Source: a candidate division WWE3 bacterium (lineage in GTDB: Bacteria > Patescibacteriota > WWE3 > UBA101185 > UBA10185). From it: DNA of 64,000 nt. Shown piece by piece: positions 3 through 62,663 of this stretch. Made by a program: the position numbers and the translations under genes. The notes beneath the pieces were generated by a model. The model was not told where the DNA came from and did not search any database. It saw only the letters and a program-made list of their open reading frames with translations. Positions within the stretch are counted from its first letter, which is position 1, and each line of letters opens with the position of its first letter. The stretch spans positions 730,919 to 794,918 of the forward strand of contig WJKK01000001.1 in NCBI GenBank assembly GCA_014729135.1, read 5' to 3'.

Positions 3-869
3 GTCGAGATTGCTGGACAGAATCCCAAGGGTACCGTCAACTTCCTTCGCATGGTTCGGAAGGTTGAGATGGTTGAATGGTCTTGGAGTGACAAGTTGGG
101 TAGCCGAAGCCGTCGCCCTGCCTGCTTGGTAATTACTCGCAAGGGTGACATTTATCGTTTTACCGGCAGCGATATCGAGGGCGTTGTCAAAGTCGTAAAC
201 TCCAACTACGTCAAGCAAGGTAAGTGGAGCCACACGACCTTCCATTGCATCTCTCCAGAAGGAACCAAAATCTACTCCTGGAGCCAAAGCTGGGGCGAAG
301 GTTTGTTTTGGCCGCAGGCTTCCTGGGAGGAGGCCATAGCCGAAATTCAGAATGCAGCTCCGCAGGCTAAAGCCCAGGCTGTGGAGAACGTTATAAGGGA
401 AAACTGGCCCCATGCGGCCGGAAAGTTCGACGAGAATCGTGCAGCAATGCACGCATTCGCCGGTGTCGAAGGCCCTATGGAATGGACATGGAACGATGGG
501 CTCGCAAGTCGAAGTCGCCGTCCTGCCTGCCTGATAATCACACCCCAAGGGGATGTGTACCGATTCGAAGGGGGTGACATCGAGGGTGTGGTTAAGGTTA
601 CGAAAGAGGACTATGAGAAAAACGGGAAGTGGAGCAATTCTACCTACCACTGTGTTTCTCCCTCCGGGTCCATAATCTACTCCTGGCGACAGAGTTGGGA
701 AGAAGGTTTGTTCTGGCCACAAGCTTCTTGGGAGGAAGCTATCACCGAAGTTCAACAGGAAGCTCCCCAAGCGAAACCAGAGGCCATTGAGGCTATCATC
801 AGGGAACACTGGAGCAGGGCTGCTGAGAAATTCGATGAGAATCGTGCAGCAATGCAAGCTTTTTCTTAA
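3..869 (+). CDS. Hypothetical protein with two tandem ~136-aa internal repeats (5' partial, ORF open to window edge)
   Basis: ORF 51..869 is open upstream to nt 3 with no stop. The protein holds two highly similar repeats ('WSW.DKLGSRSRRPACL.IT..GD.YRF.G.DIEGVVKV...Y.K.GKWS..T.HC.SP.G..IYSW.QSW.EGLFWPQASWEEAI.E.Q..APQAK...'), each ending '(K/E)FDENRAAM.AF'. Confidence 0.55.
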   Translation, partial: VEIAGQNPKGTVNFLRMVRKVEMVEWSWSDKLGSRSRRPACLVITRKGDIYRFTGSDIEGVVKVVNSNYVKQGKWSHTTFHCISPEGTKIYSWSQSWGEGLFWPQASWEEAIAEIQNAAPQAKAQAVENVIRENWPHAAGKFDENRAAMHAFAGVEGPMEWTWNDGLASRSRRPACLIITPQGDVYRFEGGDIEGVVKVTKEDYEKNGKWSNSTYHCVSPSGSIIYSWRQSWEEGLFWPQASWEEAITEVQQEAPQAKPEAIEAIIREHWSRAAEKFDENRAAMQAFS

Positions 870-4844: not shown

Positions 4845-6881
4845 ATGTCTCAAACTTTAGAAATACTACTGCATGACGGAATAAACTATCTATTGCCGCT
4901 AAACCTCTTTAATTTCGTAATGTTGGTAACAGGATTACCCCTGGGATTAAAAATCGCAAAAAAAGAAGTAAGCCACATAAGCACAGTTAGTTTAATTTTA
5001 GTAGGATACACAACCTTTGCATTAAATCATTTAAACTCACAACTATTTCCATTTAATAAAAAAACCTTACTTATAATCCTGGCTCTATGGTCAATCACAA
5101 ATGCGATTATTTGTTTTAAAGACAAAAACCTACAGCTAATTAAAACCAAGGCACTCCTAAAATATTCTCTTGCTTTCCTTTTAATAAGCACTTTCCTATA
5201 TCTGCTTAAATCCTTTGAACCGGAAATAAATCACATAGAAAGAACCATGAGCTTGGGAATTTTAAACGCGTTGGAAAAAACAACCAAACTACCTCCTAAT
5301 GATTTTTGGCTGGCAGGAAAGCAGCTTAACTATTATTATTTTGGCCATTTTTTGATAAGTAGCCTGCTAAAGCTAACACAAATACAACCTGTACCCGGAT
5401 TTTATGTAGGAACTATCTGGATGTATACAACCTTTATGCTCCTAACTTACACCACTGCAAAAAACTTATATGAAAAATTCTCCTCCAATAAAAGTGGGCA
5501 AAAAAAAGAGGCGGCACTTATAAGCACTTACTTCGTAACTCTGGGGGGAACACTGTATCCTTTTAGGTGGTTTATAGAGAATGTTATTAGACTGCTGGAA
5601 AAGCAAAAAGCAGTATCTTTTTTGTTTACGGAAGCTATAAGACCCAATAACCATAGACTTCTAGATATTCCACTATATAGCTTTTTATTTCATGAGTTAC
5701 ATGCGCATACTTGGGGGTTTATATTGGGCCTTATGATAATTAATGCTTTAATTCAATTAAAGAGTAGCCACATAAAAAAGGAGTTCGCTAAAATCGCATG
5801 GACAGGGTTCCTATTGGGAATAACTTTTATGACTAATTCTTGGGACACATTAACATTAGGAGTGCTCGTGGGAAGCACAATACTCTTTTACCTGAAGCCT
5901 AGAAAATTCGACCTGCAAACAATAGCAAAAAAAATAACGGGAATACTAGCGGTAATCACAATCGTTCTTATAACAGCACTGCCCTGGAAAAGCACCTTTA
6001 CATCTCCTATAACAGGAATAGCCATTACAGGAAACTCAACACCAATAATGCTATTACTTAGCTACTGGGGAACTTTTTTAGGAACCCTGATCCTGTACTT
6101 AATAGCGCAAATAAAATCAAAAAGGAAAGTTTGGTCCGTAAAGAAACCGGAGATCACTTTTCCACTCGTCATCCTGCTTATAGGAATAGTGCTACTAATC
6201 GCTATAGAAATATTTAGTGTAAAAGACCTTTTGGTAACAGTACAAAACAATGGATTTAACACTTTCTGGAAAACAAGCTTGCAGGTATGGATATGGTTTA
6301 ACCTTTTTACAGGAATCTTCCTAGTAGAGGCCTACAAAAAAACCAAGAACAAAAGGCTCTATGCAATTCTTTTTATGGTACTTATATTTACAACGGCCAA
6401 TTTCAGCGGAAAGATGCTTTTTCAAGGTGTTTTTAAGGATAAAAAGTTCTCCGGAATAAAAAATGGATTAGCCTTTTGGCAGGAAAGTTACCCCCAAGAA
6501 TATGAAATTTACAACTACTTAAAATCCCAAGAAGCGGACTCAAGTTTGGTCATTGCAGAAGCCCCTGGGCAAAGTTACACACATTACAACCTAATGTCGG
6601 CATTCGTAGGAGCCGAATCAGTATTAGGATGGTACACCCACGAGATAACATGGAGAAATGAGCCAACGGAACTTAAAAGGAGGCAAAGGGACTTGTATAA
6701 ACTATATACAAAAGCTTCGGTGGAAGAGGCGAAAAAAATAGTGCAAGACTACAAAATTGACTACATCATTGTTTCCGATAAAGAGAGAGAGACCTACAAG
6801 GATTTAAATGAGAAAACTTTAAGCAGGATAGGGAAAGTAGAATATAAAACCAAGGACATACTGCTTATCAAGGTAATTTAA
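4845..6881 (+). CDS. Large polytopic membrane protein, possible GT-C-type glycosyltransferase (ArnT/YfhO-like)
   Basis: 678 aa with more than 12 predicted TM helices, then a soluble C-terminal domain. No firm catalytic motif recognised. Confidence 0.3.
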   Translation: MSQTLEILLHDGINYLLPLNLFNFVMLVTGLPLGLKIAKKEVSHISTVSLILVGYTTFALNHLNSQLFPFNKKTLLIILALWSITNAIICFKDKNLQLIKTKALLKYSLAFLLISTFLYLLKSFEPEINHIERTMSLGILNALEKTTKLPPNDFWLAGKQLNYYYFGHFLISSLLKLTQIQPVPGFYVGTIWMYTTFMLLTYTTAKNLYEKFSSNKSGQKKEAALISTYFVTLGGTLYPFRWFIENVIRLLEKQKAVSFLFTEAIRPNNHRLLDIPLYSFLFHELHAHTWGFILGLMIINALIQLKSSHIKKEFAKIAWTGFLLGITFMTNSWDTLTLGVLVGSTILFYLKPRKFDLQTIAKKITGILAVITIVLITALPWKSTFTSPITGIAITGNSTPIMLLLSYWGTFLGTLILYLIAQIKSKRKVWSVKKPEITFPLVILLIGIVLLIAIEIFSVKDLLVTVQNNGFNTFWKTSLQVWIWFNLFTGIFLVEAYKKTKNKRLYAILFMVLIFTTANFSGKMLFQGVFKDKKFSGIKNGLAFWQESYPQEYEIYNYLKSQEADSSLVIAEAPGQSYTHYNLMSAFVGAESVLGWYTHEITWRNEPTELKRRQRDLYKLYTKASVEEAKKIVQDYKIDYIIVSDKERETYKDLNEKTLSRIGKVEYKTKDILLIKVI

Positions 6882-32192: not shown

Positions 32193-32310
32193 AGGCAGTT
32201 TGTGTTTTAGACTGAGTTAATGATAGCACACCCGAAAAGGAATAGGCTTCTTAGGTAAATGAGAGCGAAGCGATCATTTAGCTATGCTGGCCCTTAAATT
32301 GAGAGATAAC

Positions 32311-32446: not shown

Positions 32447-32518
32447 TGGTGGAGATGACGGGGATCGAACCCGCCCGGCAGAGTCTCAATGTCCACCTAT
32501 CCACCATGGATCATCCCC
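32447..32518 (-). ncRNA. tRNA-like element (72 nt) without a canonical anticodon arm
   Basis: Minus strand GGGGATG...GCGGG-TTCGATC-CCCGT-CATCTCC-A-CCA. It has a 7-bp acceptor stem with G3-U70, a consensus T-arm, discriminator A and encoded CCA. No 5-bp anticodon stem can be drawn. Confidence 0.45.
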
Positions 32519-41664: not shown

Positions 41665-42645
41665 CTACTCGACATCAGGCAGTACATCCTTATGGAAACG
41701 CTTATGCGTCTCCTTAAGGCGCTGATTTGTAACATGCGTATAAATCTGGGTCGTCGAAACATCCGAATGACCCAAAAGCTCCTGCACAGAACGCAAATCA
41801 GCTCCCTCCTGTAAAAGCCCCGTAGCAAAAGTGTGACGCAACGTGTGGGGAGTAACATCAACCGCCAAACCAGCCCTACGCCCATACTTCTTAATCATCC
41901 GCTGAACACTGCGAGCACTCAAGCGCAAAGACTCTCCATCGGGATCCTCATCCTCCATACTCTTACCGGAATAACGCAAAAACAAAGGCACAAACTCATC
42001 CCGACGGGTTGACAAATAACGACGTATCCACTGGCGGGCGGAAGGACTCAAATAAACAGTACGAGCCTTGCGTCCTTTACCTATAACCGTAAATTCACCT
42101 GTCTCCAAATTAATGTCATCCACATTTAAACCAACAAGCTCACTAACACGCAAACCCGTACTAAAAAGCGTTTCCAAAATTGCACGGTCACGAATACCTG
42201 AACGCTTGTTTAAATCCTGGGCAGAAAAGAGGCGTTCGAGCTGATCCTCATTTAAAACCTTAGGAACTCTGTCGCCACTTTTACCTAGATTGATTTGATC
42301 AGGAGAAATCACACTTAAATCACGTTCCACAATTAGATATTTCAAAAAAGCGCGAATTGCAACCATAAAAGTTTTTTGCGTCGACTGCTTATAACCGTCA
42401 TCTGAACGGGAATTTTTTCGACGATTTAAAAAGACACGATATTTACGAAGATTTTCCATTTGCAGATCCGCCGGATAAATCTTTTCTTTTTTTAGGTAAT
42501 CTTTAAGCCAGCCAAAAAAATCATTTAGGTAAAAATCATACATGCGAACAGTGCTTTGGGCCAGATTTTTTTCAATCTCGCAATATTCAAGATAATCAAT
42601 TAAAAGTGCGTCTAGTGAGTTTTTTCCTAAGGATGTGATACTCAT
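41665..42645 (-). CDS. Tyrosine site-specific recombinase XerC/XerD-type
   Basis: 'HTLRHTFATGLLQEGADLRSVQELLGHSDVSTTQIYTHV' is the R...HxxR...Y catalytic signature. Confidence 0.8.
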   Translation of the reverse strand: MSITSLGKNSLDALLIDYLEYCEIEKNLAQSTVRMYDFYLNDFFGWLKDYLKKEKIYPADLQMENLRKYRVFLNRRKNSRSDDGYKQSTQKTFMVAIRAFLKYLIVERDLSVISPDQINLGKSGDRVPKVLNEDQLERLFSAQDLNKRSGIRDRAILETLFSTGLRVSELVGLNVDDINLETGEFTVIGKGRKARTVYLSPSARQWIRRYLSTRRDEFVPLFLRYSGKSMEDEDPDGESLRLSARSVQRMIKKYGRRAGLAVDVTPHTLRHTFATGLLQEGADLRSVQELLGHSDVSTTQIYTHVTNQRLKETHKRFHKDVLPDVE

Positions 42646-45156: not shown

Positions 45157-45170
45157 TTACTCGCAAGCTA

Positions 45171-45272
45171 GAGTAAGTACCCCCTTTTTCTCTCACGTTT
45201 CGCGTGACTTTCCTTTTTTAATAGAAAAGTAAGTCCCGCTGCAAAAGTTCTTTCAAAAGGGGGTACTTACTC
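45171..45272. repeat. 18-bp perfect inverted repeat pair between convergent genes
   Basis: gagtaagtaccccctttt (45171-45188) / aaaagggggtacttactc (45255-45272). A second IR, aagatatctctctttt (45289-45304) / aaaagagagatatctt (45341-45356), follows. The spacer has a small hairpin plus a T-run. Confidence 0.6.
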
Positions 45273-45358
45273 TGAGGATACGGCAAGAAAGATATCTCTC
45301 TTTTGAGTGACATTTCGGAGCAAAGCGACGTCGTGGAACGAAAAAGAGAGATATCTTC

Positions 45359-52522: not shown

Positions 52523-53257
52523 TCACTTAAAATCCTGGCGAACCTTCTCATACATCACAAGAGCAGCACTTGTACTCACGTTTAAAGAGTCAATCCCCTC
52601 TCGCATAGGAATAGCCAGCTTACCATCGCAACGATCAACTACGTTATCCGAAAGGCCTTCCCCCTCGTTACCTAAAACCAGCGCCACTGCCCCCTGCAAA
52701 TTAGCGTCAAAGTATGTAGAACCTTCCATAGAAAGGGCAAAGGTTTTAATGGCTTTTTCAGAGCACTTTTTAATAGCCGTAAAAATATTCATCTTTACTA
52801 AAGGGATTCTAAGCATTGCTCCCATGGAAAGGTGAACGGTTTCGTCATTTAAAATGTCCTCCTGCCGACCCTGAAAAATAATGCCATTTACACCTGCTGC
52901 AAAAGCGGTTCTAGCTATAAAGCTTAAATTTGCTGTGTAATCAACCCGATTGGTTAATAAAAAGAAGGGCTCCTCCCCTTTTTGCTTTGTTTGAGCTAAA
53001 AGTTCTTCAAACGATGACAATTCGGGAGCTTTTAAAATGGCCACTATAGATTCGTGAGCTTCTCCGCTGCGTCCTTTAGGCATGTGGTTTCGAGCTATTT
53101 TTTTGATGTCAACGCCTCTGTTGTAGGCTTGTGAGATGATTCTTTTGACGCGAGGCTTTTCAGCGGAGTTTTTAGCAACCTGAATTTTTCCTATAGTTAG
53201 GGGTGTTTTTAGAATTTCAGTTATGATGTTTTCGTTGCGGATGGTTATGTAGCTCAT
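52523..53257 (-). CDS. SpoU/TrmH-family RNA 2'-O-methyltransferase
   Basis: 'LVLGNEGEGLSD', SPOUT knot motifs. Confidence 0.7.
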   Translation of the reverse strand: MSYITIRNENIITEILKTPLTIGKIQVAKNSAEKPRVKRIISQAYNRGVDIKKIARNHMPKGRSGEAHESIVAILKAPELSSFEELLAQTKQKGEEPFFLLTNRVDYTANLSFIARTAFAAGVNGIIFQGRQEDILNDETVHLSMGAMLRIPLVKMNIFTAIKKCSEKAIKTFALSMEGSTYFDANLQGAVALVLGNEGEGLSDNVVDRCDGKLAIPMREGIDSLNVSTSAALVMYEKVRQDFK

Positions 53258-53260
53258 AAG

Positions 53261-53704
53261 TTAATTGCCTCCTTCAGCGGCTTTCCTGTCGACAGAAGAA
53301 ACCAAACCGGCTTGCTCCAAAAAATCCAAGCGTACCTTCTCCAAATGAGGAGCTAAAACTTCAGAACTCGCGGAAACAGTCGCAACTTCTCCCTTTGAAA
53401 AAGAAAAATCCGCACAAGAATATAACGTTTTCAACTCCCTATAAACAAAAGGTGATACATAAGGATGCAGCAAGTCCTTCTTAACTAAATCAACCTCTCG
53501 ACCAAAAAGAGACTTAAAATCTTCCTCAACGTCAAAAAGATCAAAAAGACTTTTAACAGGGGTTTCCGGGGCGTACTCCACAAGAAGATCAACATCACTC
53601 CCCTCTTTTGCTTCTTGGCGTGCGTGGGAGCCAAAGAGACCAAGGTAAGTTATTTTGTATTTTTCACAGATATCTGCAATTTTTTGGGAATCTATTTGTA
53701 GCAT
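53261..53704 (-). CDS. Nucleotidyltransferase-domain protein (Pol-beta superfamily)
   Basis: 'LGLFGSHARQEAKEGSDVDLLVE' is the GS...DxD motif. Confidence 0.65.
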   Translation of the reverse strand: MLQIDSQKIADICEKYKITYLGLFGSHARQEAKEGSDVDLLVEYAPETPVKSLFDLFDVEEDFKSLFGREVDLVKKDLLHPYVSPFVYRELKTLYSCADFSFSKGEVATVSASSEVLAPHLEKVRLDFLEQAGLVSSVDRKAAEGGN

Positions 53705-53875
53705 GTGGTTATTATAGTATATGTTGTAGGATTTTTCAGGAAAAAGATCGCGGTGTTGTTCGTATCCTGATATTTATAAAAAGATTCGCGGAAGGAATCC
53801 CTTTTGGCAATAGAGTATGGGCGGTGTTACCAATTTTTGCATAATAAAAAGATTGAAATTTGAGATAATAGAATC

Positions 53876-54448
53876 GTGATAAAAAATGTCGCTTTTGATT
53901 CCGGTGGAGTTTTAATATTTACTAACAACTTTATTGATTATTTCATCAAGAACCTTCTTGAAAATAATATAGCAATTTCAAAGACTGATTTCTTAGACAG
54001 TTTGTCCCTTGCTGAATCTGGTACAAAAAAATTATCAGAAGTTTACAAAAATATTGATGGGTTTGAAAATTTATGGATTGAAGCTCTTGAAAACAATGCC
54101 AAATACAACTTTGAACTTCTCAACTACTATAAAAATGTTTTAGCAAAGAGGGTCGATGCAGGTATTTTAAGTAATGTTGATAGTATTCTTGCAAAATCTG
54201 GAATAAACAAAAACCTTTATAAGATTTTTGATAGCGTAATTCTCAGCTGTAATATTGGATATGCTAAACCCTGCCAGGAAATCTATTATGAATATTTAAA
54301 AAAGGTTAATTTACCTCCGGAGAAAGTCTTATTTATTGAGGACAAACAAGAGTATATAGATGTGGCTAATGACATAGGATTCGAAACTATTCACTTTATC
54401 AACACTCAAAAGACAATAGAGGAAATAAAAAAGATCATACTAAATTAA
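53876..54448 (+). CDS. HAD-superfamily hydrolase
   Basis: 'VAFDSGGVL' motif I and 'LFIEDKQEYIDVANDIGF' motif III/IV. Confidence 0.55.
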   Translation: MIKNVAFDSGGVLIFTNNFIDYFIKNLLENNIAISKTDFLDSLSLAESGTKKLSEVYKNIDGFENLWIEALENNAKYNFELLNYYKNVLAKRVDAGILSNVDSILAKSGINKNLYKIFDSVILSCNIGYAKPCQEIYYEYLKKVNLPPEKVLFIEDKQEYIDVANDIGFETIHFINTQKTIEEIKKIILN

Positions 54449-54675
54449 AAAGATCAGCTTTGTCACGTATTACGTACAAAATCGTAGCTCTTTGGGTGCT
54501 ATTACAGGAAATAAGACTCAGAACCAAGCCGTTTTTGCGGATTTTGGGCATGTCAAGAGGCTCACATTATGTTAAAAGAGCTCGCCTTTCACTTCGTGAA
54601 AGCCTCGGGTAGTTCAAAATGCTCCCGTTCGGTCGCATTTTGATCAACCATCGCCCTCGCCTACGGTGAGGCCTC

Positions 54676-54762
54676 TGGTGGGCGAGGAGGGAATCGAACC
54701 CTCACAGGATTGCTCCCATCGGTTTTTGAGACCGACGCGTATACCAGTTCCGCCACTCGCCC
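54676..54762 (-). tRNA. tRNA-Leu (anticodon CAA), type II with long variable arm
   Basis: Minus strand GGGCGAG-TG-GCG..CGC-G-TCGGT-CTCAAAA-ACCGA-(17-nt variable arm)-GAGGG-TTCGATT-CCCTC-CTCGCCC-A-CCA. All stems pair. Anticodon loop is CT-CAA-AA. Confidence 0.85.
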
Positions 54763-54835
54763 TTAAAAAGTTTTCGCAGAAAACTTTTTATGGTGATCAA
54801 AATACGAGCGTACTAACGCGAGTATTTTGAACTCC

Positions 54836-54863
54836 CGTCAAGTGTAGCGAAGCTACCTTGACG
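54836..54863. repeat. Hairpin repeat copy 1 (cgtcaag-t-gtagc-gaa-gctac-c-ttgacg) followed by gaacaaagcttga
   Basis: Perfect nested stems. Part of an ~105-nt tandem unit. Confidence 0.6.
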
Positions 54864-54989
54864 AACAAAGCTTGAGTTTCAATTCGTTTCGTTTCACAAA
54901 ACTTTTCAAGCTGATCGAAATGCGTAGCATTTCGAACTGCCGCAAAATGTCCGACTTTGGAGGACTTTTGCGAACTTCCCTTAAACTCC

Positions 54990-55017
54990 CGTCAGGTGTC
55001 GCAAAGCGACCCTGACG
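54990..55017. repeat. Hairpin repeat copy 2 (cgtcagg-t-gtcgc-aaa-gcgac-c-ctgacg) followed by gaacaaagcttga
   Basis: Same architecture as copy 1, with two compensatory base-pair changes (A-T to G-C outer, A-T to C-G inner). Confidence 0.6.
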
Positions 55018-55215
55018 AACAAAGCTTGATTTACAAAACACAGCATTTAGCTATGCTTAAAAGGTTTGTACTCAAACCTTTTAGAACCAAACTTACTCCC
55101 AAAGCAAAAGGAATTCTAACATAATCCTTTGAAATCGACATGAGAAATTATTCAAGTAATCTCTTTCTCTCTCACGTTTCACGGCGACTTTCTTTTTTTA
55201 TCCAAAAAGACAGCC

Positions 55216-55242
55216 CTAACAAGTTGCCTTGCAACTTGTTAG
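55216..55242. repeat. Perfect 12-bp stem / 3-nt loop hairpin
   Basis: ctaacaagttgc-ctt-gcaacttgttag. Confidence 0.6.
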
Positions 55243-55344
55243 CCACATCGAAATCCGTGGTTGACGGATTGTCGATGAGTCGTGAAAGTTCGTTCAAAAG
55301 GGATTACTTTGATTTAACCCTACAAAAAAGAGACTTCTCAAACG

Positions 55345-55569
55345 TTAATTTTGCATCTCCTCCAAAACAGCCTCTGTACCCTCGGAAGAAACCCCCTCAG
55401 AAACTCCCTCCAACAGATTCTTAATTTCTTGATCCATTTCGGAGAATTCACCACGCTCCCGCTCTAATACCTCTTCCGTAGTTCTCTCGAGACCCCCTCC
55501 AAGAGCTTCCACTGCCTTAAGCAACTGCTCCCTCCTGCTAGTTTGACCTTCAACATTACCTAAACTCAT
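55345..55569 (-). CDS. Small acidic hypothetical protein (74 aa)
   Basis: ORF overlapping the upstream small ORF by 4 nt (ATGA). Confidence 0.3.
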   Translation of the reverse strand: MSLGNVEGQTSRREQLLKAVEALGGGLERTTEEVLERERGEFSEMDQEIKNLLEGVSEGVSSEGTEAVLEEMQN

Positions 55570-55907
55570 CCTTCCAAACCTTCCATTAACGAACTAATAG
55601 ACTGATCAGCAACAAACTCCTTAAACCGTTGACCATAATCAGGAATCTGCGACACATACTTCCTCACAAACTCCGCCATGCTATCATCCGTTGTCTTTGC
55701 AGGAACAGGGCGATCATCCGTTAAAGCCTTTAAATCATTAAAAAATTGGGTAAACAAATAAGGAGGAATATTGAGTTGCAAAAACTTAAGCGCCATAACC
55801 GTAAAAAGAGTGTCCAGTTTTTGCTGAAGGGTGTCACGCTTTTGATCCGAAATCTCCAGCGAGTTTATGCGGTTTGTAAGAATTTTGTAGTATTCGCTTA
55901 CTTCCAC
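55566..55907 (-). CDS. Small hypothetical protein (113 aa)
   Basis: ORF only. Downstream of abiEii on the same strand. Confidence 0.3.
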   Translation of the reverse strand: MEVSEYYKILTNRINSLEISDQKRDTLQQKLDTLFTVMALKFLQLNIPPYLFTQFFNDLKALTDDRPVPAKTTDDSMAEFVRKYVSQIPDYGQRFKEFVADQSISSLMEGLEG

Positions 55908-55997
55908 GGATTTATCTTAGCACATTTTTCAATTACGAAGCGTAACACTTAATTTCGCCAAGGTTAACTAAATCCGCTCCGTAAAACAGAGCCACTA

Positions 55998-56780
55998 CTA
56001 CTCTAACTCCTCCACAAAACGATCAAACAGCAAAACACGAGAAATCTTTTTAGGATCTATAAGAAAAGGCTCAACATCCCGCGCCAAATCCTTAAGATTT
56101 ACCCGCTCAACAAAGCCTTTCAAAGCCCCCTTCAAATCTTGCAGGGACTTAACTTCATAGGAAGACTCCATTACCGAAAAATCCAAATCCTCCGCCGAAA
56201 TACGAGAAAAAAGATAAACAATATCATAAATATCCCTACCTTTAGGCCTTTTCCTACCCAACAGAGCCTCAAACTTTTTAATAGCCAAAACTTCTTGCGG
56301 ATAGGTCCTTATCTCCTTAAACACATCAAATTCATTTAGCAAGTGCATTCTAACGGGAGGCAGCTTACGCTTCTCAGCCACATCCAGCTGAATCAGGATC
56401 TTTTCGGTTATCTGATCTGAAAGCTTGTAATCATAAAGTAAATTCGGAAAACGAAGGTAGCAGCGATAAACTCCTTTATGAACATTGCGATACTCACTAA
56501 CTAAACCCCTCTTTTTAAGCTCTCTTTTAAGATATTGAGTAAAACGTTCAAACATTTGCTCATTTAATCCTGTAACGTCAAAGTCCAAATCTTCAGAAAA
56601 ACGATCACTCCCATAGACAATTCTAATTGCCGTACCTCCGGTAAAAACCAACTTATCTCCTAAAAACGAGGAAAAAATAAGATCAAGAATTTGATACTGG
56701 AGGTATTCCCTTAACAGAGCCCTCCCCAGCTTCTGCTCCTTTTCATTATAGTGCTGTTTTATTTGCTTTAAAGTAAGCAT
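55998..56780 (-). CDS. abiEii: AbiEii/AbiGii-family nucleotidyltransferase toxin (DUF1814)
   Basis: 'LVFTGGTAIRIVYGSDRFSEDLDFDV' is the characteristic DUF1814 NTase motif. Confidence 0.7.
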   Translation of the reverse strand: MLTLKQIKQHYNEKEQKLGRALLREYLQYQILDLIFSSFLGDKLVFTGGTAIRIVYGSDRFSEDLDFDVTGLNEQMFERFTQYLKRELKKRGLVSEYRNVHKGVYRCYLRFPNLLYDYKLSDQITEKILIQLDVAEKRKLPPVRMHLLNEFDVFKEIRTYPQEVLAIKKFEALLGRKRPKGRDIYDIVYLFSRISAEDLDFSVMESSYEVKSLQDLKGALKGFVERVNLKDLARDVEPFLIDPKKISRVLLFDRFVEELE

Positions 56781-56831
56781 TTTAGATGTTTTGTACAGTT
56801 TAGTCGGTTAGGCGAAAAACCGGCTAAACCT

Positions 56832-57479
56832 TTACTTACCTGCTTCCTTAAACAACTGTGTAAAAAATTTATACATTCTATTCTTGCGTATCTCTGAATC
56901 AACAAAATTAAAAAAGCCGGCAAGTAACTCAGGGTCAAAATTTTCAGGCAAAGTAAAGCGCATAGACTCAAAGTCAAGAGGAGTACTTAAGTCCTTCCTT
57001 AAATAAACAAGATCAAACAAGGCTTTTTCAGGAGTTGCTATTTTAAATTCTGCTGTTGTATTAGGCGCTGCAATGCTCTTCACCTTATCTGCAGTGTAAG
57101 TAGAGGGTTTTAAAACGTAACCTCTAAAAAGTTCGGGCTTGATTTTTTTATAAATAAAAGTGCCCACAGGGGTTTCAATAGTCGTTGAGGTCATAGTGGA
57201 AACACAAGTAACAGTTTGGGCTATATCGGGAATTATGCCATAGTAGGAAAGGGCGTATTCCAAGGAGATATACGAGGGGCGAATTTCATTTGACAAAAGG
57301 TGAATATCTATGTCAGTTTTGGGAAACGTGTAAATACCTTCTGTTAGGCGTTGAAGCCATCCCTTGTTTTCCCAGCGGGACATCTGAGCCCGATCGGCTT
57401 TTCCAAAGGCGTTTTCCACATCCTGTAGGGTGAATGTATGCTGAGTGCCCAGTTTCTCCTGAAGCTCTTTGAATTGCAT
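56832..57479 (-). CDS. abiEi: AbiEi-family antitoxin/transcriptional regulator (wHTH)
   Basis: N-terminal 'FTLQDVENAFGKADRAQMSRWENKGWLQRLTEGIYTF' is AbiEi-like. Directly upstream of abiEii. Confidence 0.6.
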   Translation of the reverse strand: MQFKELQEKLGTQHTFTLQDVENAFGKADRAQMSRWENKGWLQRLTEGIYTFPKTDIDIHLLSNEIRPSYISLEYALSYYGIIPDIAQTVTCVSTMTSTTIETPVGTFIYKKIKPELFRGYVLKPSTYTADKVKSIAAPNTTAEFKIATPEKALFDLVYLRKDLSTPLDFESMRFTLPENFDPELLAGFFNFVDSEIRKNRMYKFFTQLFKEAGK

Positions 57480-57554: not shown

Positions 57555-58904
57555 TTACTCCTCCGGAGTCACAGATTTCTCCGCCTCGTAAAAGCGTGTC
57601 CTATTAGACTTAAAGAACAACGGAATCTCCCCCGTAGGCCCATTACGATGCTTAGCAATCACAAGCCCCATATTTTCCCGATCCTCCTCATCCGGTCTAT
57701 ACAAAAACAAAACCACGTCAGCATCCTGCTCAATAGAACCCGAGTCCCGCAAATCCGAAAGCTGCGGACGCTTCACTCCCCCACGCTGCTCAACCGCTCG
57801 TGACAACTGCGACAAAGCCAAAACGGGCACACGTAACTCCCTGGCCAAATTCTTCAAAGACTGAGAAATATACGTAACCTCTTGCACACGCGACTCAAAG
57901 TTCTTCCCATGAACAAGCTGCATATAGTCAATCATAATCAAATCCAAACCATGCTCCATTTGCAAACGCCTAGCCTTGGTTCGCATCTCAATAACAGAAA
58001 TTCCCGGCGTGTCATCAATAAAAATAGGAGCCTCCGCCAGCTGACCTGCAGCAATTCCATACTTTTCAAAATCCTCAGCCGCCAAATTCCCCGTACTAAT
58101 CCTCCAGTTATCAATGTCACCCTGCGCCGAAATCATACGATCCACAATCGACTCGCGTCCCATCTCCAAAGAGAAAAAACCAATCTTTTTGCCATGCTCT
58201 ATAGAGGCATGCTGAGCTATATTTATTGCCAGAGACGATTTACCCATGGAGGGGCGGGCCGCCAAAATAATGAGCTCTTCCTTTTGGAGTCCTGAAAGCA
58301 TTTTGTCCAGCTTTTTTAAGCCTGTAGGAACACCTCGCAAAGCTCCTCTAGTTTTGGAAAGCTCGTCTAGACGCTCAAACGTAACTTCTAAGGTTTTTTT
58401 AACGGGGACAAATTCTTCGTGAACACGATCCTGGGAAACATCATATAAAAGCTGCTCCGATTTATCCAGCAAATCCGTAACATCTGATTCTTCACGAACC
58501 ATGCGAGCAATTCTCCCGGCCGTTCTAAGAAGGTTTCTACGTGTGGCATGATCTTTAATAATGTTGCCGTAATGTTCTATATTGGCAGCAGTTGGCACAA
58601 AGTTCACCAGTTCCGTTAAATACGCCACTCCCCCACTGGATTTGAGCTCGCCCATTTTCCTTAGTTGATCCGGAACGGTTACAAGGTCGGCGGGCTCTCT
58701 ATTTTCGTAAAGTTCCAGGATTGCTTCGTAAATGTTGGCATGTGAAGTTTTGTAGAAGTGTTCCGCCCGAAGAAATTCAACAATTTTTACAAGGCTGTCG
58801 GGATCAAGCAAGATTGCCCCTAATACAGATTTTTCAGCATCAACATCATGTGGAGGGACATCTGGATTCATGTCGGGTCTGTATTTTGCAGGATTGTGCA
58901 CCAT
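57555..58904 (-). CDS. dnaB: Replicative DNA helicase DnaB
   Basis: 'SVLGAILLDPD' N-terminal domain. 'AARPSMGKSSLAINIA' Walker A. 'LIMIDYMQLV' Walker B. Confidence 0.9.
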   Translation of the reverse strand: MVHNPAKYRPDMNPDVPPHDVDAEKSVLGAILLDPDSLVKIVEFLRAEHFYKTSHANIYEAILELYENREPADLVTVPDQLRKMGELKSSGGVAYLTELVNFVPTAANIEHYGNIIKDHATRRNLLRTAGRIARMVREESDVTDLLDKSEQLLYDVSQDRVHEEFVPVKKTLEVTFERLDELSKTRGALRGVPTGLKKLDKMLSGLQKEELIILAARPSMGKSSLAINIAQHASIEHGKKIGFFSLEMGRESIVDRMISAQGDIDNWRISTGNLAAEDFEKYGIAAGQLAEAPIFIDDTPGISVIEMRTKARRLQMEHGLDLIMIDYMQLVHGKNFESRVQEVTYISQSLKNLARELRVPVLALSQLSRAVEQRGGVKRPQLSDLRDSGSIEQDADVVLFLYRPDEEDRENMGLVIAKHRNGPTGEIPLFFKSNRTRFYEAEKSVTPEE

Positions 58905-59026: not shown

Positions 59027-59680
59027 TTAGTGCTGCGGCTTTAAAACCAAGACTTCCGTCTCATCAGGCACGCGCGAAGTACTCGACAAATTCAACTCCG
59101 ACTTTTGCTTCACGTCATCCTCTGCTCCCATCTCCTTTAAAAACGCCTCCAACTTAGCCAACTTCTTATCATACTTGGAATCCTTCGTATCATAATGCAT
59201 AGGCACCACAAATCCGGGCTCAATAGAGGAAATCACCTTAGTAGCAAGCTCTGCATCAATAACGTAGTTTCCCCCTACCGGAATCATCAAAACGTCGACA
59301 TCGCCTACTTTCTCCAAAGTCTTCTGCGGAAGTTCGTGCCCTAAACTCCCAAGATGCAAAATGCTAAAGTCGCCGTTGTCTATTAAATAGGCTGTGTTTT
59401 TTCCTAGATCGGAGCCTTCTTTGGCATCGTGATAAGTAGGAAGGCCGTAAATAAAAATTCCTCCCATTTCGTACTCCCCCGGAGAATCTATTGTAAATTC
59501 GTTCCCCACCACTCCTTTTGTGTAAGTGGTTTCCTTGTCGTTGTGGGAAAGCAAGAGGATGTCTGCTTTTGTCTCAGGAAAGTCGTATCCAAAGGATTTG
59601 GGATCGTAAGGGTCTATAACGATGGCGGTTTTGTCGATTTCTACTTTGAAGCTTGAGTGGCCTATGTATGTTATTTTCAT
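59027..59680 (-). CDS. UPF0173-type metal-dependent hydrolase (MBL fold)
   Basis: 'MKITYIGHSSFKVEIDKTAIVIDPY', then 'LLSHNDKE'. Confidence 0.65.
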   Translation of the reverse strand: MKITYIGHSSFKVEIDKTAIVIDPYDPKSFGYDFPETKADILLLSHNDKETTYTKGVVGNEFTIDSPGEYEMGGIFIYGLPTYHDAKEGSDLGKNTAYLIDNGDFSILHLGSLGHELPQKTLEKVGDVDVLMIPVGGNYVIDAELATKVISSIEPGFVVPMHYDTKDSKYDKKLAKLEAFLKEMGAEDDVKQKSELNLSSTSRVPDETEVLVLKPQH

Positions 59681-59711
59681 GGGAGTATCTTAACACAAGT
59701 GGAGAAAGTGA

Positions 59712-59921
59712 CTAGTCCCAATCTTCCCATTTATATCTATCACCATATCCATAAGGATCATTCTCTAGCTCCTTTATTGCTGCCATCAATTCCTCTGTTG
59801 TTACACCCACTTTCAAATCAAAAACACCCGTTACTCTTTTTACACGGGGAGGTGTGCCTTCTTCTCCTTTCTCGGGAGCATTCTTATTAATATTAGCTTT
59901 TCTTGAACTTTTCTGCACCAT
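59712..59921 (-). CDS. Small hypothetical protein (69 aa)
   Basis: ORF only. Confidence 0.25.
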   Translation of the reverse strand: MVQKSSRKANINKNAPEKGEEGTPPRVKRVTGVFDLKVGVTTEELMAAIKELENDPYGYGDRYKWEDWD

Positions 59922-60092
59922 GGTAAGTACATTCTAAAAGGGGTCTGCACAATTGTCTACTAGAAGTGGAACAGTGTACCGCACTACACTATTTTCGCCC
60001 TTTTTGGTGTAATGCAGCACACTCTCTAAAGAGAGCGTGTGGTGAAGGAATTTTAGACAAAAGGAACTCCGGAGATTACAATACAAAGGACT

Positions 60093-61436
60093 ATGAAAAA
60101 CATGAAAGATCAAAAATTAACAACAGAACCATACAAAGGAGCACGTGACTTCTATCCTGAGGAGAAGCGTATCCAGGAATATTTATTTAACATTTGGAGA
60201 GAAACTGCTAAAAGCTTTGGATATGAAGAATACGACTTCCCTCTTTTGGAAAAGTATGAATTGTATGAAGCTAAATCGGGGGAAGATTTGGTTCAAAATC
60301 AACTTTATTCCTTTGAGGACAGAGGCGGAAGAAAAGTAGCAGTACGTCCTGAAAAGACCCCTTCCCTAGCAAGAATGGTAGCTGCTCGAGTACAATCCTT
60401 ACCCAAACCCATCCGCTGGTTTAACATTGGAAATTGCTGGCGATATGAAAAGCCTCAAAGAGGTCGCGGAAGGGAATTCTACCAATTTGACTGCGATATT
60501 TTTGGAGTTGATGACATTTTCGCTGATGTAGAGGTCTTCTCTATTCCCATAGAGGTGATGAAAAAGCTTGGAGCAACTTCTGAAATGTTTGAAATTCGTG
60601 TTAACAATAGAAAATTCGCGGAGAGTTATTTGCGCAATATCGTTGAACTAAAGGGAGGGATGGCAGAAAAAGACTCACAGCTTTATGCGGTTACAAAAGC
60701 TATAGATTCCAAACCAAAGATTTCTGAAAATGAATTTTTGAAACTGCTAGAAGAGGCTTGGGTTAGCACAAAACAAATTGAAAAGCTAAACGAATACCTA
60801 AGTGCAGATCTGGAATTTGTGTCAAAGTATGCCAAGGACAATGAGGGAGCTAAGGAATTGCTAGATTTCTTTGCATTAATGAAAGAAACAGGATACGGCG
60901 AATTTATCGCCTTCAAACCGGAAATTATGCGCGGATTAGACTATTACACAGGCATGGTAATTGAGCAGTTTGACTTGAATCCCAAAAACAACCGCTCCAT
61001 GTACGGCGGGGGGCGCTATGAAAATTTAATTGGCCTTTTTTCTGATGAACAAATGGGGGGAGTTGGTTTTGCCATGGGCGATATGACCCTCCTAGAATTT
61101 CTCAAAGGATGGAATTTGCTACCGGAAATAGAACAGGAAGTTGACTATTATGTGACGGTCTGGCCTGTAAGTAAAGGAGCTAGCGAAGGCAAACAGGAAG
61201 CAACGGGAAACCTAGCAGACGCTTTTAAAACAGCTCGAAAACTAAGGGAAAAAGGTAAAAATGTCATAAATTGTCTAGACCCCACTACAAGCATTTCAGA
61301 CCAGCTAGCTGATGCAAACAAAAGAGGAGCCAAAAACGTTGTAATTCAAGGCCCTCAGGAAGAGGAAGAAGGCGTTGTTAGCGTTAAAAACATGAAATCA
61401 GGTGAGCAACAACAAATCCCCATAGAAAAACTGTAA
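60093..61436 (+). CDS. hisS: Histidine--tRNA ligase
   Basis: 'GARDFYPEE', 'RWFNIGNCWRYEKPQRGRGREFYQFDCDIFG' are class II motifs. C-terminal anticodon-binding domain. Confidence 0.85.
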   Translation: MKNMKDQKLTTEPYKGARDFYPEEKRIQEYLFNIWRETAKSFGYEEYDFPLLEKYELYEAKSGEDLVQNQLYSFEDRGGRKVAVRPEKTPSLARMVAARVQSLPKPIRWFNIGNCWRYEKPQRGRGREFYQFDCDIFGVDDIFADVEVFSIPIEVMKKLGATSEMFEIRVNNRKFAESYLRNIVELKGGMAEKDSQLYAVTKAIDSKPKISENEFLKLLEEAWVSTKQIEKLNEYLSADLEFVSKYAKDNEGAKELLDFFALMKETGYGEFIAFKPEIMRGLDYYTGMVIEQFDLNPKNNRSMYGGGRYENLIGLFSDEQMGGVGFAMGDMTLLEFLKGWNLLPEIEQEVDYYVTVWPVSKGASEGKQEATGNLADAFKTARKLREKGKNVINCLDPTTSISDQLADANKRGAKNVVIQGPQEEEEGVVSVKNMKSGEQQQIPIEKL

Positions 61437-61472: not shown

Positions 61473-62486
61473 GTGTTTAAAACTGCCCAACACAACAAAA
61501 AACACAAGCATAGCGAGCACTTTCTAGCCTATGCCGCCTTAACAACTGTAACGCTTCTGTGGGCGTTGGCGGGACCTGTTATTAAGCTCACACTCCATGG
61601 AATACCTCCTATGCACTTTCTGTTTCTGCGCCTCTTGATAGTGTGTATTGTCATTTTACCGGCACTGATTATGCGGCTTCAAAAGAATCCGGTGAGCTCA
61701 AAAGAAATCCCTACGCTAATAGCACTAGGACTGTTTAGCCAAAGCAGCCTGGCGCTAAGCTTTATTGGCTATCAATACGCCACAGCACTAGATGCCGCTA
61801 TTATTACGCTCATCTCTCCCCTACTTTCTGTGGCTGCCGGTCATCTCTACTTTAATGAAAAAGTCAGCAAAAAAACTAAAATTGGATTGACTTTGGCTAC
61901 AGTAGGCACCGCTTTAATCATTTTTGAGCCTTTGCTTTTAAACAATCACACGCCTTTGATTACTAAGGAGCTTCGCGTGCTTGGAAACATTCTTATATTA
62001 AGCTCAACGGTTGCTTTTTTGATTTATACGATTTGGTCTAAGTATGCGGAAGGTGCCCGTAGTAAAAAGCTTAAAAGTACGTTTAAGCTTTTGCACTTGC
62101 ATCGCCTGAAAAGGAATAGGTCGGCTTTGGAGATTACGTTTATTACTTTTTATGTAGGGCTTGCAACAACTATTCCTTTGGTGTTTTTGGAGGCTAAGGG
62201 GTTTTTAAATGGAGGGGTTCCGGTGGATTTTAATCCTGCTAACCTTGCAACGATAACTATTTTAGGGATTTTGTATATGGCGATTTTTTCTTCTATTGTG
62301 GCCTACACGCTTTTTGAATGGGCTTTGCAAATTTCGAGTGTTACGGATACTGCGTTTTTCAACTACCTCTCCCCTATTTTTGTTTTACCCTTTGCCTATG
62401 TGCTTTTAGGGGAAATTCCCACGACAATGAGTTTAATTGGTGGTGGAATCATTGCTGCCGGAGTGATTATTGCTGAGCATAAATAA
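61473..62486 (+). CDS. EamA/DMT-family transporter
   Basis: 10 TM helices in a 5+5 layout. 'ALIIFEPL' follows the duplicated EamA pattern. Confidence 0.6.
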   Translation: MFKTAQHNKKHKHSEHFLAYAALTTVTLLWALAGPVIKLTLHGIPPMHFLFLRLLIVCIVILPALIMRLQKNPVSSKEIPTLIALGLFSQSSLALSFIGYQYATALDAAIITLISPLLSVAAGHLYFNEKVSKKTKIGLTLATVGTALIIFEPLLLNNHTPLITKELRVLGNILILSSTVAFLIYTIWSKYAEGARSKKLKSTFKLLHLHRLKRNRSALEITFITFYVGLATTIPLVFLEAKGFLNGGVPVDFNPANLATITILGILYMAIFSSIVAYTLFEWALQISSVTDTAFFNYLSPIFVLPFAYVLLGEIPTTMSLIGGGIIAAGVIIAEHK

Positions 62487-62520: not shown

Positions 62521-62570
62521 CCGAGACGGCGCAAGTTATGACATTTGAGGCTAATTGCTGCCATAGTTTT

Positions 62571-62601
62571 AGGGGACAGTCCTTTAAGAGGACTGTCCCC
62601 T
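62571..62601 (+). promoter_or_regulatory. Second, stronger copy of the same hairpin in the rpmE leader
   Basis: aggggacagtcc-tttaaga-ggactgtcccct, a 12-bp stem, about 60 nt upstream of the L31 start. Confidence 0.4.
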
Positions 62602-62663
62602 ATTTCTAACTGCTGGAATAGGCATTGCCCACCGCAAAAAAAGCTGATATACTACACAACGCT

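Follow-up and report, generated by a model that had tools for sequence, protein, structure and literature searches.

We examined a 0.9-kb non-coding tract around a tRNA-Leu(CAA) gene in a candidate division WWE3 bacterium (Patescibacteria/candidate phyla radiation, CPR), using a 64,000-nucleotide stretch, hereafter the window, of its 864-kb genome. The tract is a mosaic of about a dozen short hairpins whose stems vary in sequence with pairing kept, and it is not a discrete non-coding RNA (ncRNA) gene. With moderate confidence, we interpret the hairpins as a family of self-maintaining palindromes, similar to repetitive extragenic palindromic (REP) elements and bacterial interspersed mosaic elements (BIMEs), that multiplied, through duplication and inversion, within the leader and trailer of the tRNA-Leu(CAA) and occasionally elsewhere. 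An initial annotation of this DNA had noticed covarying hairpins in two copies and had offered three candidates, a structured ncRNA, repeats like miniature inverted-repeat transposable elements (MITEs), and a protein-binding array. The covarying hairpins are real and more extensive than first noted. Among the three candidates the MITE/REP-like one fits best, because the modules vary in number, occur in both orientations and at a second locus, and include a dimer that lies within another repeat. A single discrete ncRNA is unsupported and a double-stranded protein-binding array is unlikely.

Hairpin modules around tRNA-Leu(CAA)

The tract lies between two convergent genes, a HAD gene (+ strand, 53876-54448) and a 74-aa open reading frame (ORF) on the - strand that ends at 55345. 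Two further ORFs, 54853-55041 and 55140-55424, had been noted as looking spurious, a judgement with which we agree: they run across hairpins or across the 74-aa ORF of the opposite strand, and their DNA has no blastn match in relatives. The tract is strongly structured, with folding z-scores of -11.6 on the + strand and -10.9 on the - strand. Of the 11 perfect hairpins in the window with stems of 9 bp or more, it contains 5; shuffled sequences gave 0-7 per whole window.

The hairpins are 21-44 nt long, with stems of 7-13 bp and loops of 3-16 nt, and three module types were distinguished. Type A has an AT-rich stem of 10-13 bp and a loop of 3-4 nt. Type B follows the pattern ..RAAAT[G/A]...[C/T]ATTTY.. 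plus a GG/CC clamp. Type C, together with the trailer module h3, has CCCG and then a hairpin. A covariance model, R1, was built from six B hairpins. A-C-B units lie upstream of the tRNA, as two tandem units plus one additional A, and an inverted B-C copy lies downstream, where B0-h3 repeats B1-C1. In tRNA sense (- strand) the order is an extended -10 motif, A3-E-C2-D-B2, degenerate A2-C1-B1, A1, the tRNA, a short hairpin, B0, and h3. The features, in window coordinates, are as follows.

54586-54611 (- strand): trailer module h3, TACCCGAGG plus the hairpin CTTTCAC GAA GTGAAAG.
54608-54650 (- strand): hairpin B0, downstream of the tRNA and in tRNA sense (R1, 56.3 bits).
54655-54673: short hairpin right after the tRNA 3' end, CCTCGCC TACG GTGAGG (+ strand letters).
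54676-54762 (- strand): tRNA-Leu(CAA) gene with encoded CCA (ARAGORN; Rfam RF00005, 61.4 bits).
54764-54790: hairpin A1, a perfect 12-bp palindrome, TAAAAAGTTTTC GCA GAAAACTTTTTA, abutting the tRNA 5' end.
54790-54836 (+ strand): hairpin B1, TGATCAAAATAC...GTATTTTGAAC with the GG/CC clamp, antisense to the tRNA (R1, 45.4 bits).
54836-54876: hairpin C1, 12 bp with a 1-nt bulge, a GAA loop and the tail GAACAAAGCTTGA.
54877-54911: degenerate A2, which has lost its 5' arm and still has the 3' arm and the junction CACAAAACTTTTCAAGC; boundary of the second tandem unit.
54908-54941 (+ strand): hairpin B2, TGATCGAAATGC GTA GCATTTCGAAC (R1, 29.1 bits).
54941-54972: hairpin D, CGCAAAA-T-GTCC ... GGAC-TTTTGCG, found in the second unit only (minimum-free-energy folds).
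54990-55030: hairpin C2 and tail, the second copy of C1.
55042-55057: hairpin E, AGCAT TTAGCT ATGCT, with homologues GCGTAGCTAAATGC / GCATGTCTAAATGC in the leader of the related contig L054.
55058-55083: hairpin A3, a perfect 11-bp palindrome, TAAAAGGTTTG TACT CAAACCTTTTA.
55113-55121 (- strand): extended -10 promoter-like motif TGTTAGAAT (window copy TGTTAGAATTCC), 359 nt upstream of the tRNA.

The tRNA-Leu(CAA) had been recognised in the initial annotation, as had the two nested hairpins with tails, C1 and C2, whose coordinates were reproduced. In C1 the outer stem is CGTCAAG/CTTGACG (54836-54842 / 54857-54863), the inner stem is GTAGC-GAA-GCTAC, and the tail runs to 54876. C1 and C2 are parts of a 56-nt direct repeat that is 86% identical at a spacing of 154 nt, and the 16-mer GACGAACAAAGCTTGA occurs exactly twice in the window, once in each. 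The remnant A2 was recognised by comparing 54777-54806 with 54895-54924, which are 80% identical at a spacing of 118 nt. The ~105-nt tandem unit proposed earlier did not hold up, as the period is 118 nt for the A/B junction and 154 nt for the C hairpin. Tandem Repeats Finder does not call the hairpin units of the tract. A repeat search found inverted repeats flanking the tRNA, with B0 as the inverted partner of B1. The exact type-B form TGATCRAAAT...ATTTYGAAC occurs three times in the window, at 54794-54832 (+), 54912-54937 (+) and 54612-54646 (-).

Covariation and pairing

The copies of C differ by two compensated pairs, A54841-T54858 to G54995-C55012 in the outer stem and A54846-T54854 to C55000-G55008 in the inner stem, precisely as described in the initial annotation, and by one additional single change in the loop, GAA to AAA. 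Covariation is not confined to type C. The A copies (54764-54790 versus 55058-55083) and the B copies each have two compensated pairs of their own.

Pairing was quantified in the window and in two related contigs, L053 and L054. A hairpin finder that is neutral to G·T versus A·C identified 20 hairpins in the three genomes, with 183 Watson-Crick core pairs, 0 G·U, 0 A·C and 2 other mismatches. A curated set of 23 hairpins was also assembled by hand, from which six single-base bulges were removed, and all of its stem pairs were Watson-Crick (235/235). Pairs were counted by script; MAFFT alignments of the families put the arms out of register at 1-nt loop differences and bulges. When the 5' arm of one member was compared with the 3' arm of another, ~71% of positions matched in families A and B. 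Because the arms of each hairpin are 100% complementary to one another and the cross-member figure is ~71%, all of the sequence divergence is compensated.

The compensated pairs of C had been taken as evidence for selection on structure. The core of this claim holds and is stronger than first put: sequence varies with pairing kept in three families and three genomes. Compensated changes alone are nevertheless no proof of selection on RNA structure. Wobble-free core stems, both orientations and presence/absence variation together fit the maintenance of palindromes at the DNA level. The DNA mini-hairpin motif GCGAAGC is not enriched in the window (5 found versus 5.2 expected).

If the hairpins are REP/BIME-like palindromes, the modules would spread and diversify at the DNA level: they would be duplicated and inverted locally, and templates would be switched within a strand at the hairpins. 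Such a switch would copy a change in one arm onto the other arm, generating 'compensatory' pairs in one step. Template switching during replication is known to create and maintain perfect hairpin stems, including compensatory substitutions, and it predicts perfect stems, compensation in a single event, inverted copies and no G·U intermediates (PMC8794818). It is a mutational mechanism, not a family of elements, and for the tRNA-Leu locus it is a proposal. The modules would persist at this site because leader and trailer are removed by RNase P and 3' processing, so that their length would be nearly neutral. They would be co-transcribed as by-products, and may stabilise or insulate the transcript.

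Predicted leader and trailer, and relatives

Related WWE3 contigs were compared under the labels L044, L046, L047, L048, L049, L051-L054 and L058-L060. DnaB homologues 81-91% identical to that of the window (gene at 57555-58904) were used to reach syntenic contigs. L052 and L053 were added through a tRNA-pattern scan of metagenomes. The tRNA-Leu(CAA) gene is a conserved anchor between dnaB and efp in L044, L046, L047, L052, L053, L054, L058 and L060.

The promoter-like motif, generalised as TGnTAnAAT, was found as the sole copy within 450 nt upstream of the tRNA in 8/9 distinct WWE3 regions, L053 having two adjacent copies. Its distances from the tRNA are -20, -20, -23, -41, -59, -131 (the proximal copy of L053), -163, -296 and -359 (the window), and the chance expectation is ~0.03 per sequence. 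The bases flanking the window motif are common to L046 (TGTTAAAATTCC). No terminator-like site was found between the motif and the tRNA in a scan of the - strand. From this arrangement we infer that the hairpin array lies between the tRNA promoter and the tRNA, giving a leader of ~343 nt, and that modules fill both the leader and the trailer of the pre-tRNA. This placement had gone unnoticed in the initial annotation.

Predicted leaders are ~4-45 nt long in L046, L047, L052, L048 and L051, ~115 nt in L053/L058 and ~280 nt in L054. Module-free leaders were found in L048, whose DnaB is 91% identical to that of the window, and in L051, L046, L047, L052 and L060. No similarity to the window hairpins was detected by blastn in the nearest relatives by DnaB (L048, L049, L044 and L051). 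Homologous kinds of hairpin flank the same tRNA in L053/L058, in L054 and, weakly, in L044. The number of modules per leader ranges from 0 to ~9 among genomes with DnaB 84-91% identical to that of the window; module number and order thus change quickly within the clade.

In the window, in L053 and in L054 an A hairpin stands directly against the 5' end of the tRNA, each time with a different stem; the inner stems are GTTTTC/GAAAAC, GTCTGC/GCAGAC and GGTTGC/GCAACC, respectively. A1 aligns to the tRNA-abutting hairpin of L053/L058. With blastn, window 55087-55022 matched the L054 leader over 66 nt at 73%, including an A stem with four compensated pairs. Window A3-E aligns to two places in that leader: A3 has 86% similarity to the A hairpin that L054 carries at -30, and a homologue at -89 from which it differs by four compensated pairs. 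The junction CAAGCTT is common to both genomes, and the L054 leader contains a C-like hairpin, GTCAAGGTTGT-TAT-ACAACCTTGAC. The 16-nt core of B1, GAGCGTACTAACGCGA, is identical to that of h2, a hairpin downstream of the tRNA in L054, in the opposite orientation, and the leader of L053 has an inverted copy of the hairpin whose core B1 and L054 h2 share. B0 has the same position and orientation as h2 in L053 and L054. The trailer order, h2 (type B) and then h3 (ACCCGARG plus a hairpin), is the same in the window, L053 and L054 with differing stems; the h3 counterparts are GGAAGTG-TAAA-CACTTCC in L053 and AGAAGTG-TAAT-CACTTCT in L054, and all of the differing stems pair.

Copies outside the tRNA unit

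The R1 model was used to scan the window and found four B copies, three at the tRNA and one at a second locus. A and C modules were not found outside the tRNA locus in the window. The outlying copy and the elements described below are as follows.

32247-32288 (+ strand): dispersed B-type hairpin GGTAAATGAGAGCGAAGCGATCATTTAGCTATGCT (R1, 27.2 bits, E = 1e-4 to 4e-4).
45168-45276 (- strand): m-element copy 1 (m45k), with a 15-bp perfect terminal inverted repeat/closing stem and no A-B insertion.
55154-55309 (- strand): m-element copy 2 (m55k), rod-like, with a 10-bp closing stem, interrupted by an A-B dimer.
55216-55242 (- strand): hp2, a perfect 12-bp A-type palindrome within m55k, followed by a T-run on the - strand.
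55246-55277: hp1, a B-type hairpin within m55k, CATCGAAATCCGT GGTTG ACGGATT-TG-TCGATG.

The dispersed B copy has 14 nt in common with hairpin E (CATTTAGCTATGCT, 32275-32288), and a ACCCGAAAAGG motif stands beside it. It lies ~160 nt from a small gene like that of transfer-messenger RNA (tmRNA). This 72-nt tRNA-like gene, at 32447-32518 (-), matched only the tRNA-like domain of tmRNA (RF00023, 33.9 bits; gathering score 47). In place of the ~308-nt mRNA-like core there are 15 nt; the gene encodes its own CCA, and it has a T-arm and a G3·U70 pair. It goes uncalled by ARAGORN, and a terminator-like hairpin follows on the - strand at 32346-32311. The gene may be a reduced but complete tmRNA (mini-tmRNA), the remnant of one, or a tRNA-like RNA of a new kind.

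The m-element is a second repeat, parts of which had been noticed before. The motif that the tract was said to share with a region at 45.2 kb, TCTCACGTTTC-N-GACTTTC, occurs only at 45191-45212 and 55170-55192 (0 expected), and the perfect 12-bp hairpin reported at 55216-55242 is present and is hp2. The conserved cores in m55k (+ strand) are TCTCTCACGTTTC..GACTTTC.TTTTTTA and GTTCNTTCAAAAGGG. The two copies share a closing stem of differing sequence, the adjoining conserved cores and a symmetric 6x6 internal loop made up of purines alone when read on the - strand (GAAMGA facing GAGAGA). This loop, together with a few G·U pairs possible only on that strand, points tentatively to the - strand, and the two strands fold equally well. 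Both copies are found just 3' of - strand genes, m55k beginning 35 nt after the stop of the 74-aa ORF. The m45k copy lies between convergent genes, and each of its strands folds with z = -6.6. L044, where the gap is 18 nt, and L047 lack it at the orthologous junction, so m45k is an insertion. In MITE terms, the m-element has terminal repeats of 15 and 10 bp, lengths of 109 and 156 nt, two copies and presence/absence polymorphism; no direct repeat, and thus no target-site duplication, flanks either copy. Next to m45k, directly after the stop of a gene for a DUF87/S1-domain ATPase, there is a hairpin of ~80 nt at 45277-45357 (GAAAGATATCTCTCTTTTG / CGAAAAAGAGAGATATCTTCC). Together the two fill a 203-nt gap, as against the 18 nt between the same convergent genes in L044.

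The A-B junction is present three times, twice near the tRNA and once in m55k as hp2-hp1, and the A-B dimer is absent from m45k. The repetition of this junction implies that the dimer was either inserted into the m-element or lost from it. The A hairpins have A and T runs inside the stem. Of the hairpins in the region, hp2 is the sole terminator-like site, where one is expected by chance, and from its T-run it may act as the terminator of the upstream operon.

Wider searches were made with exact patterns. An 18-base pattern for the m-element core gave 43 matches in GTDB genomes, all from unrelated phyla and none with the 3' core, and they were regarded as chance; the exact core is in no GTDB representative genome. 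The C hairpin (29 specified bases) had 0 matches in JGI metagenomes, and the C, m and B cores had 0 matches in IMG/VR. Elsewhere in the window there are perfect palindromes of 11 bp at 62065-62092, inside an EamA-like ORF (61473-62486), and of 14 bp at 62570-62602. The latter, probably a terminator, lies between the EamA-like gene and that for L31.

Weighing the interpretations

Several observations count against a family of self-maintaining palindromes. Pfam searches of 28 ORFs at 28-64 kb, the set to which all statements on missing proteins below refer, revealed no REP-associated tyrosine transposase (RAYT) or IS200-type transposase, integron integrase or other mobilising enzyme. Only two module loci occur within 64 kb, so dispersal through the genome is unproven. 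A 0.9-kb non-coding tract is unusual for a streamlined genome of 864 kb, and hints at function. The A hairpin at the tRNA 5' end, with three stems in three lineages, looks like conservation of position and structure. Co-transcription of the array is itself a prediction from sequence. Finally, minimum-free-energy folds of the three whole leaders contain 22 peripheral G·U pairs in tRNA sense versus 3 in antisense, and composition-matched shuffles of the same leaders give 33.5 and 19.7. From this asymmetry, some RNA-level constraint on the tRNA-sense transcript is possible.

The strongest alternative, to which we assign a lesser but appreciable chance, is that the hairpins are functional elements of pre-tRNA-Leu selected at the RNA level. 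They could protect against exonucleases, serve as signals for RNase III or RNase P, form a B-C duplex of leader and trailer around the tRNA, or act as a regulatory or sponge RNA. The array stands between a conserved promoter-like motif and the tRNA. The window, L053 and L054 all keep an A hairpin next to the 5' end of the tRNA, its stem covarying between them, the trailer order of B and then h3 is conserved in three genomes, and inverted B-C modules flank the tRNA. In addition to the sense-antisense asymmetry of G·U pairs in the leader folds, the tRNA-sense leader of the window is ~10 kcal/mol more stable than its complement, and 0.9 kb of junk would be unexpected in so streamlined a genome. 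However, the nearest relatives manage with leaders of 4-45 nt that have no modules, and the number, order and orientation of modules differ in every genome. The core stems contain 0/183 G·U pairs, which is unusual for helices selected as RNA, and modules occur in both orientations and outside the tRNA unit, in m55k and at 32.25 kb. No Rfam family is represented among them; the Rfam scan suggested in the initial annotation was run and gave only tRNA matches, with all others far below threshold. A single discrete ncRNA was rejected on the same ground, and also because the tract has no conserved overall architecture and no counterpart in the nearest relatives.

A further idea, for which we see a small chance, is that WWE3/CPR bacteria have undescribed, self-propagating palindromes associated with tRNA genes, from which tRNA processing releases functional, stable small hairpin RNAs. 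Such modules may colonise pre-tRNA leaders and trailers as well as the neighbourhood of the tmRNA-like gene. The processed hairpins may then be RNase decoys, regulators or a substrate of the adjacent tRNA-directed toxin-antitoxin enzymes.

It is improbable, in our estimate, that the palindromes are a REP/BIME or MITE family of the classical kind, with many dispersed copies that a RAYT or IS200/IS605-type transposase, encoded at another place in the genome, moves in trans. In favour of this, they are 20-45 nt long, they cluster like BIMEs in mosaics whose units alternate in orientation, and they occupy 3' regions and the space between convergent genes; one module lies inside another repeat, and a second locus exists. 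The C stem begins with CGTC and its inner stem with GTAG, the tag motifs of REPs (PMC3733652). In REPs the tag is an unpaired end motif, whereas here CGTC and GTAG are paired inside the C stems, and they are absent from A and B. No RAYT or TnpA was found among the ORFs tested, B has only 4 copies in the 64 kb while A and C are restricted to the tRNA locus, and the exact-pattern scans of GTDB, JGI metagenomes and IMG/VR gave no real copies.

A functional site at the DNA level is very unlikely, whether as an origin-proximal protein-binding or cruciform array or as recombination or attachment sites for variable cargo. The palindromes are perfectly Watson-Crick, they lie ~5 kb from the minimum of cumulative GC skew and a switch of gene orientation (~59.7-60.1 kb), the cargo between dnaB, tRNA and efp differs in every relative, and in L053 a 15-nt repeat of the tRNA 3' end brackets hairpin modules. 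Yet the arm sequences are unconserved, and only the complementarity of the arms is kept, which makes a sequence-specific binder of double-stranded DNA, and with it a protein-binding array, unlikely. The window has no DnaA-box cluster and no repeat of the tRNA 3' end. There is no adjoining integrase, the sole tyrosine recombinase (41665-42645) is syntenic in relatives, and cargo genes are not individually flanked by hairpins. A replication origin at the tract was rejected, as there is no DnaA-box cluster and GC skew there follows the gene strand. An integration site in the window was rejected since the tRNA 3' end is unduplicated.

A stem-loop guide-RNA array of the tandem interspaced guide RNA (TIGR) type is hardly credible: TIGR stem arrays are 'variable but consistently palindromic', with one clade in CPR bacteria (PMC12045711), but loops here are 3-16 nt with irregular spacing and no Nop-domain protein was found among the ORFs tested, and we rejected it on loop size and the missing Tas gene.

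Comparison with known systems

REP elements and BIME clusters are the closest known match to the WWE3 palindromes, yet the tag that defines REPs is missing as such. The likeness to the REPs, BIMEs and REPINs of Proteobacteria lies in short extragenic palindromes, mosaics of alternating orientation and short conserved linkers, and further in 3' or convergent intergenic sites, transcription with neighbouring genes, which is predicted here, and subfamilies whose stems vary with pairing kept (PMC3733652, PMC2817692). The WWE3 modules differ in having no unpaired GTAG/CGTC end tag (PMC3733652). Their stems are perfect and AT-rich, whereas REP stems are imperfect and GC-rich. They are few and on one tRNA gene, whereas REPs are dispersed in tens to thousands, and the family is confined to a sub-clade of WWE3, with no RAYT among the ORFs tested.

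Other families of modular palindromes share fewer features. BOX elements of Streptococcus pneumoniae have the modular structure boxA-boxB(n)-boxC, with hairpin-forming sub-units and a variable number of middle modules. Rickettsia palindromic elements insert into genes or RNAs without a transposase of their own. Both families have more than 100 dispersed copies per genome and a conserved sequence. The WWE3 modules resemble them as modular hairpins, but differ in low conservation, few copies and a niche in the leader and trailer of a tRNA.

Bacterial tRNA and rRNA transcripts have external transcribed spacers with leader-trailer processing stems, such as the 3'ETS of leuZ, which are short, single-copy and conserved. 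These spacers are removed by RNase P and 3' processing, and inverted segments in leader and trailer could pair around the mature RNA. The WWE3 array is similarly placed, between the inferred promoter and the tRNA and after the tRNA, but its leader, at 343 nt, consists of palindromes repeated in an array, which the nearest relatives lack.

TIGR stem units have a large loop with box C, spacer A, box D, a linker, box C', spacer B and box D'; the two spacers are 8-12 nt long, and the arrays adjoin a Tas gene with a Nop domain (PMC12045711). The WWE3 tract shares with TIGR-Tas systems the occurrence in CPR of tandem, sequence-variable palindromes that standard repeat finders miss (PMC12045711). It differs in loops too small for dual spacers, the lack of a box C/D layout and an irregular period.

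The variable dnaB-tRNA-Leu-efp interval

The tRNA-Leu locus is a variable hot spot. The interval dnaB-tRNA-Leu-efp (window 52523-57479) is a hot spot for cargo, with genes that differ among L044, L046, L047, L054 and L060. In the window the cargo comprises AbiEi/AbiEii (55998-57479), two small ORFs, the HAD gene, an MntA-like nucleotidyltransferase and SpoU. L060 has Ham1, AAA_17 and NUDIX genes, and other relatives have other small ORFs or none of the window's cargo. The two small ORFs of the window (113 and 74 aa, 55345-55907) encode acidic products without a Pfam match, and lie between the AbiE genes and the hairpins. L051 keeps this pair (111 and 74 aa; 5224-5780) directly after dnaB; at the same place L053/L058 have different small ORFs.

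The metagenomic contigs L048, L051, L058 and L059 end at or within tRNA-Leu, as expected of a repeat-rich, strain-variable spot.

In L053 the 15-nt direct repeat of the tRNA-Leu 3' end (CCTCCTTGCCCACCA) is at 70-84 (-), or +280-294 relative to the tRNA, ~190 nt downstream. Behind it stands the CCA-pairing hairpin that in L054 comes after the tRNA itself, and the two copies of the 15-nt repeat bracket ~190 nt of modules. On its sequence, the repeat looks like a scar of the attL/attR type or a duplication. No such duplication of the tRNA-Leu 3' end was found in the window.

The GC-skew minimum at ~59680-60093 coincides with a 413-nt gap between a Lactamase_B-like gene and hisS, where gene orientation changes from - to +. 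This gap could be a replication origin, or reflect mere gene-strand bias.

Significance

CPR genomes are small and usually repeat-poor, so 0.9 kb of almost nothing but perfect palindromes is unexpected. Among close relatives, the predicted leader of one tRNA grows from ~4 to ~343 nt purely through added hairpin modules. The 23 stems, which have diverged by ~30% without a mispair, offer a natural test of selection at the RNA level against templated mutation at the DNA level. The locus also breaks metagenomic assemblies at the tRNA, and it cautions against naming an ncRNA gene from covarying hairpins alone. Should the modules prove to be processed into functional hairpin RNAs, tRNA processing would have been put to a new use, as the maturation pathway for an RNA array derived from repeats.

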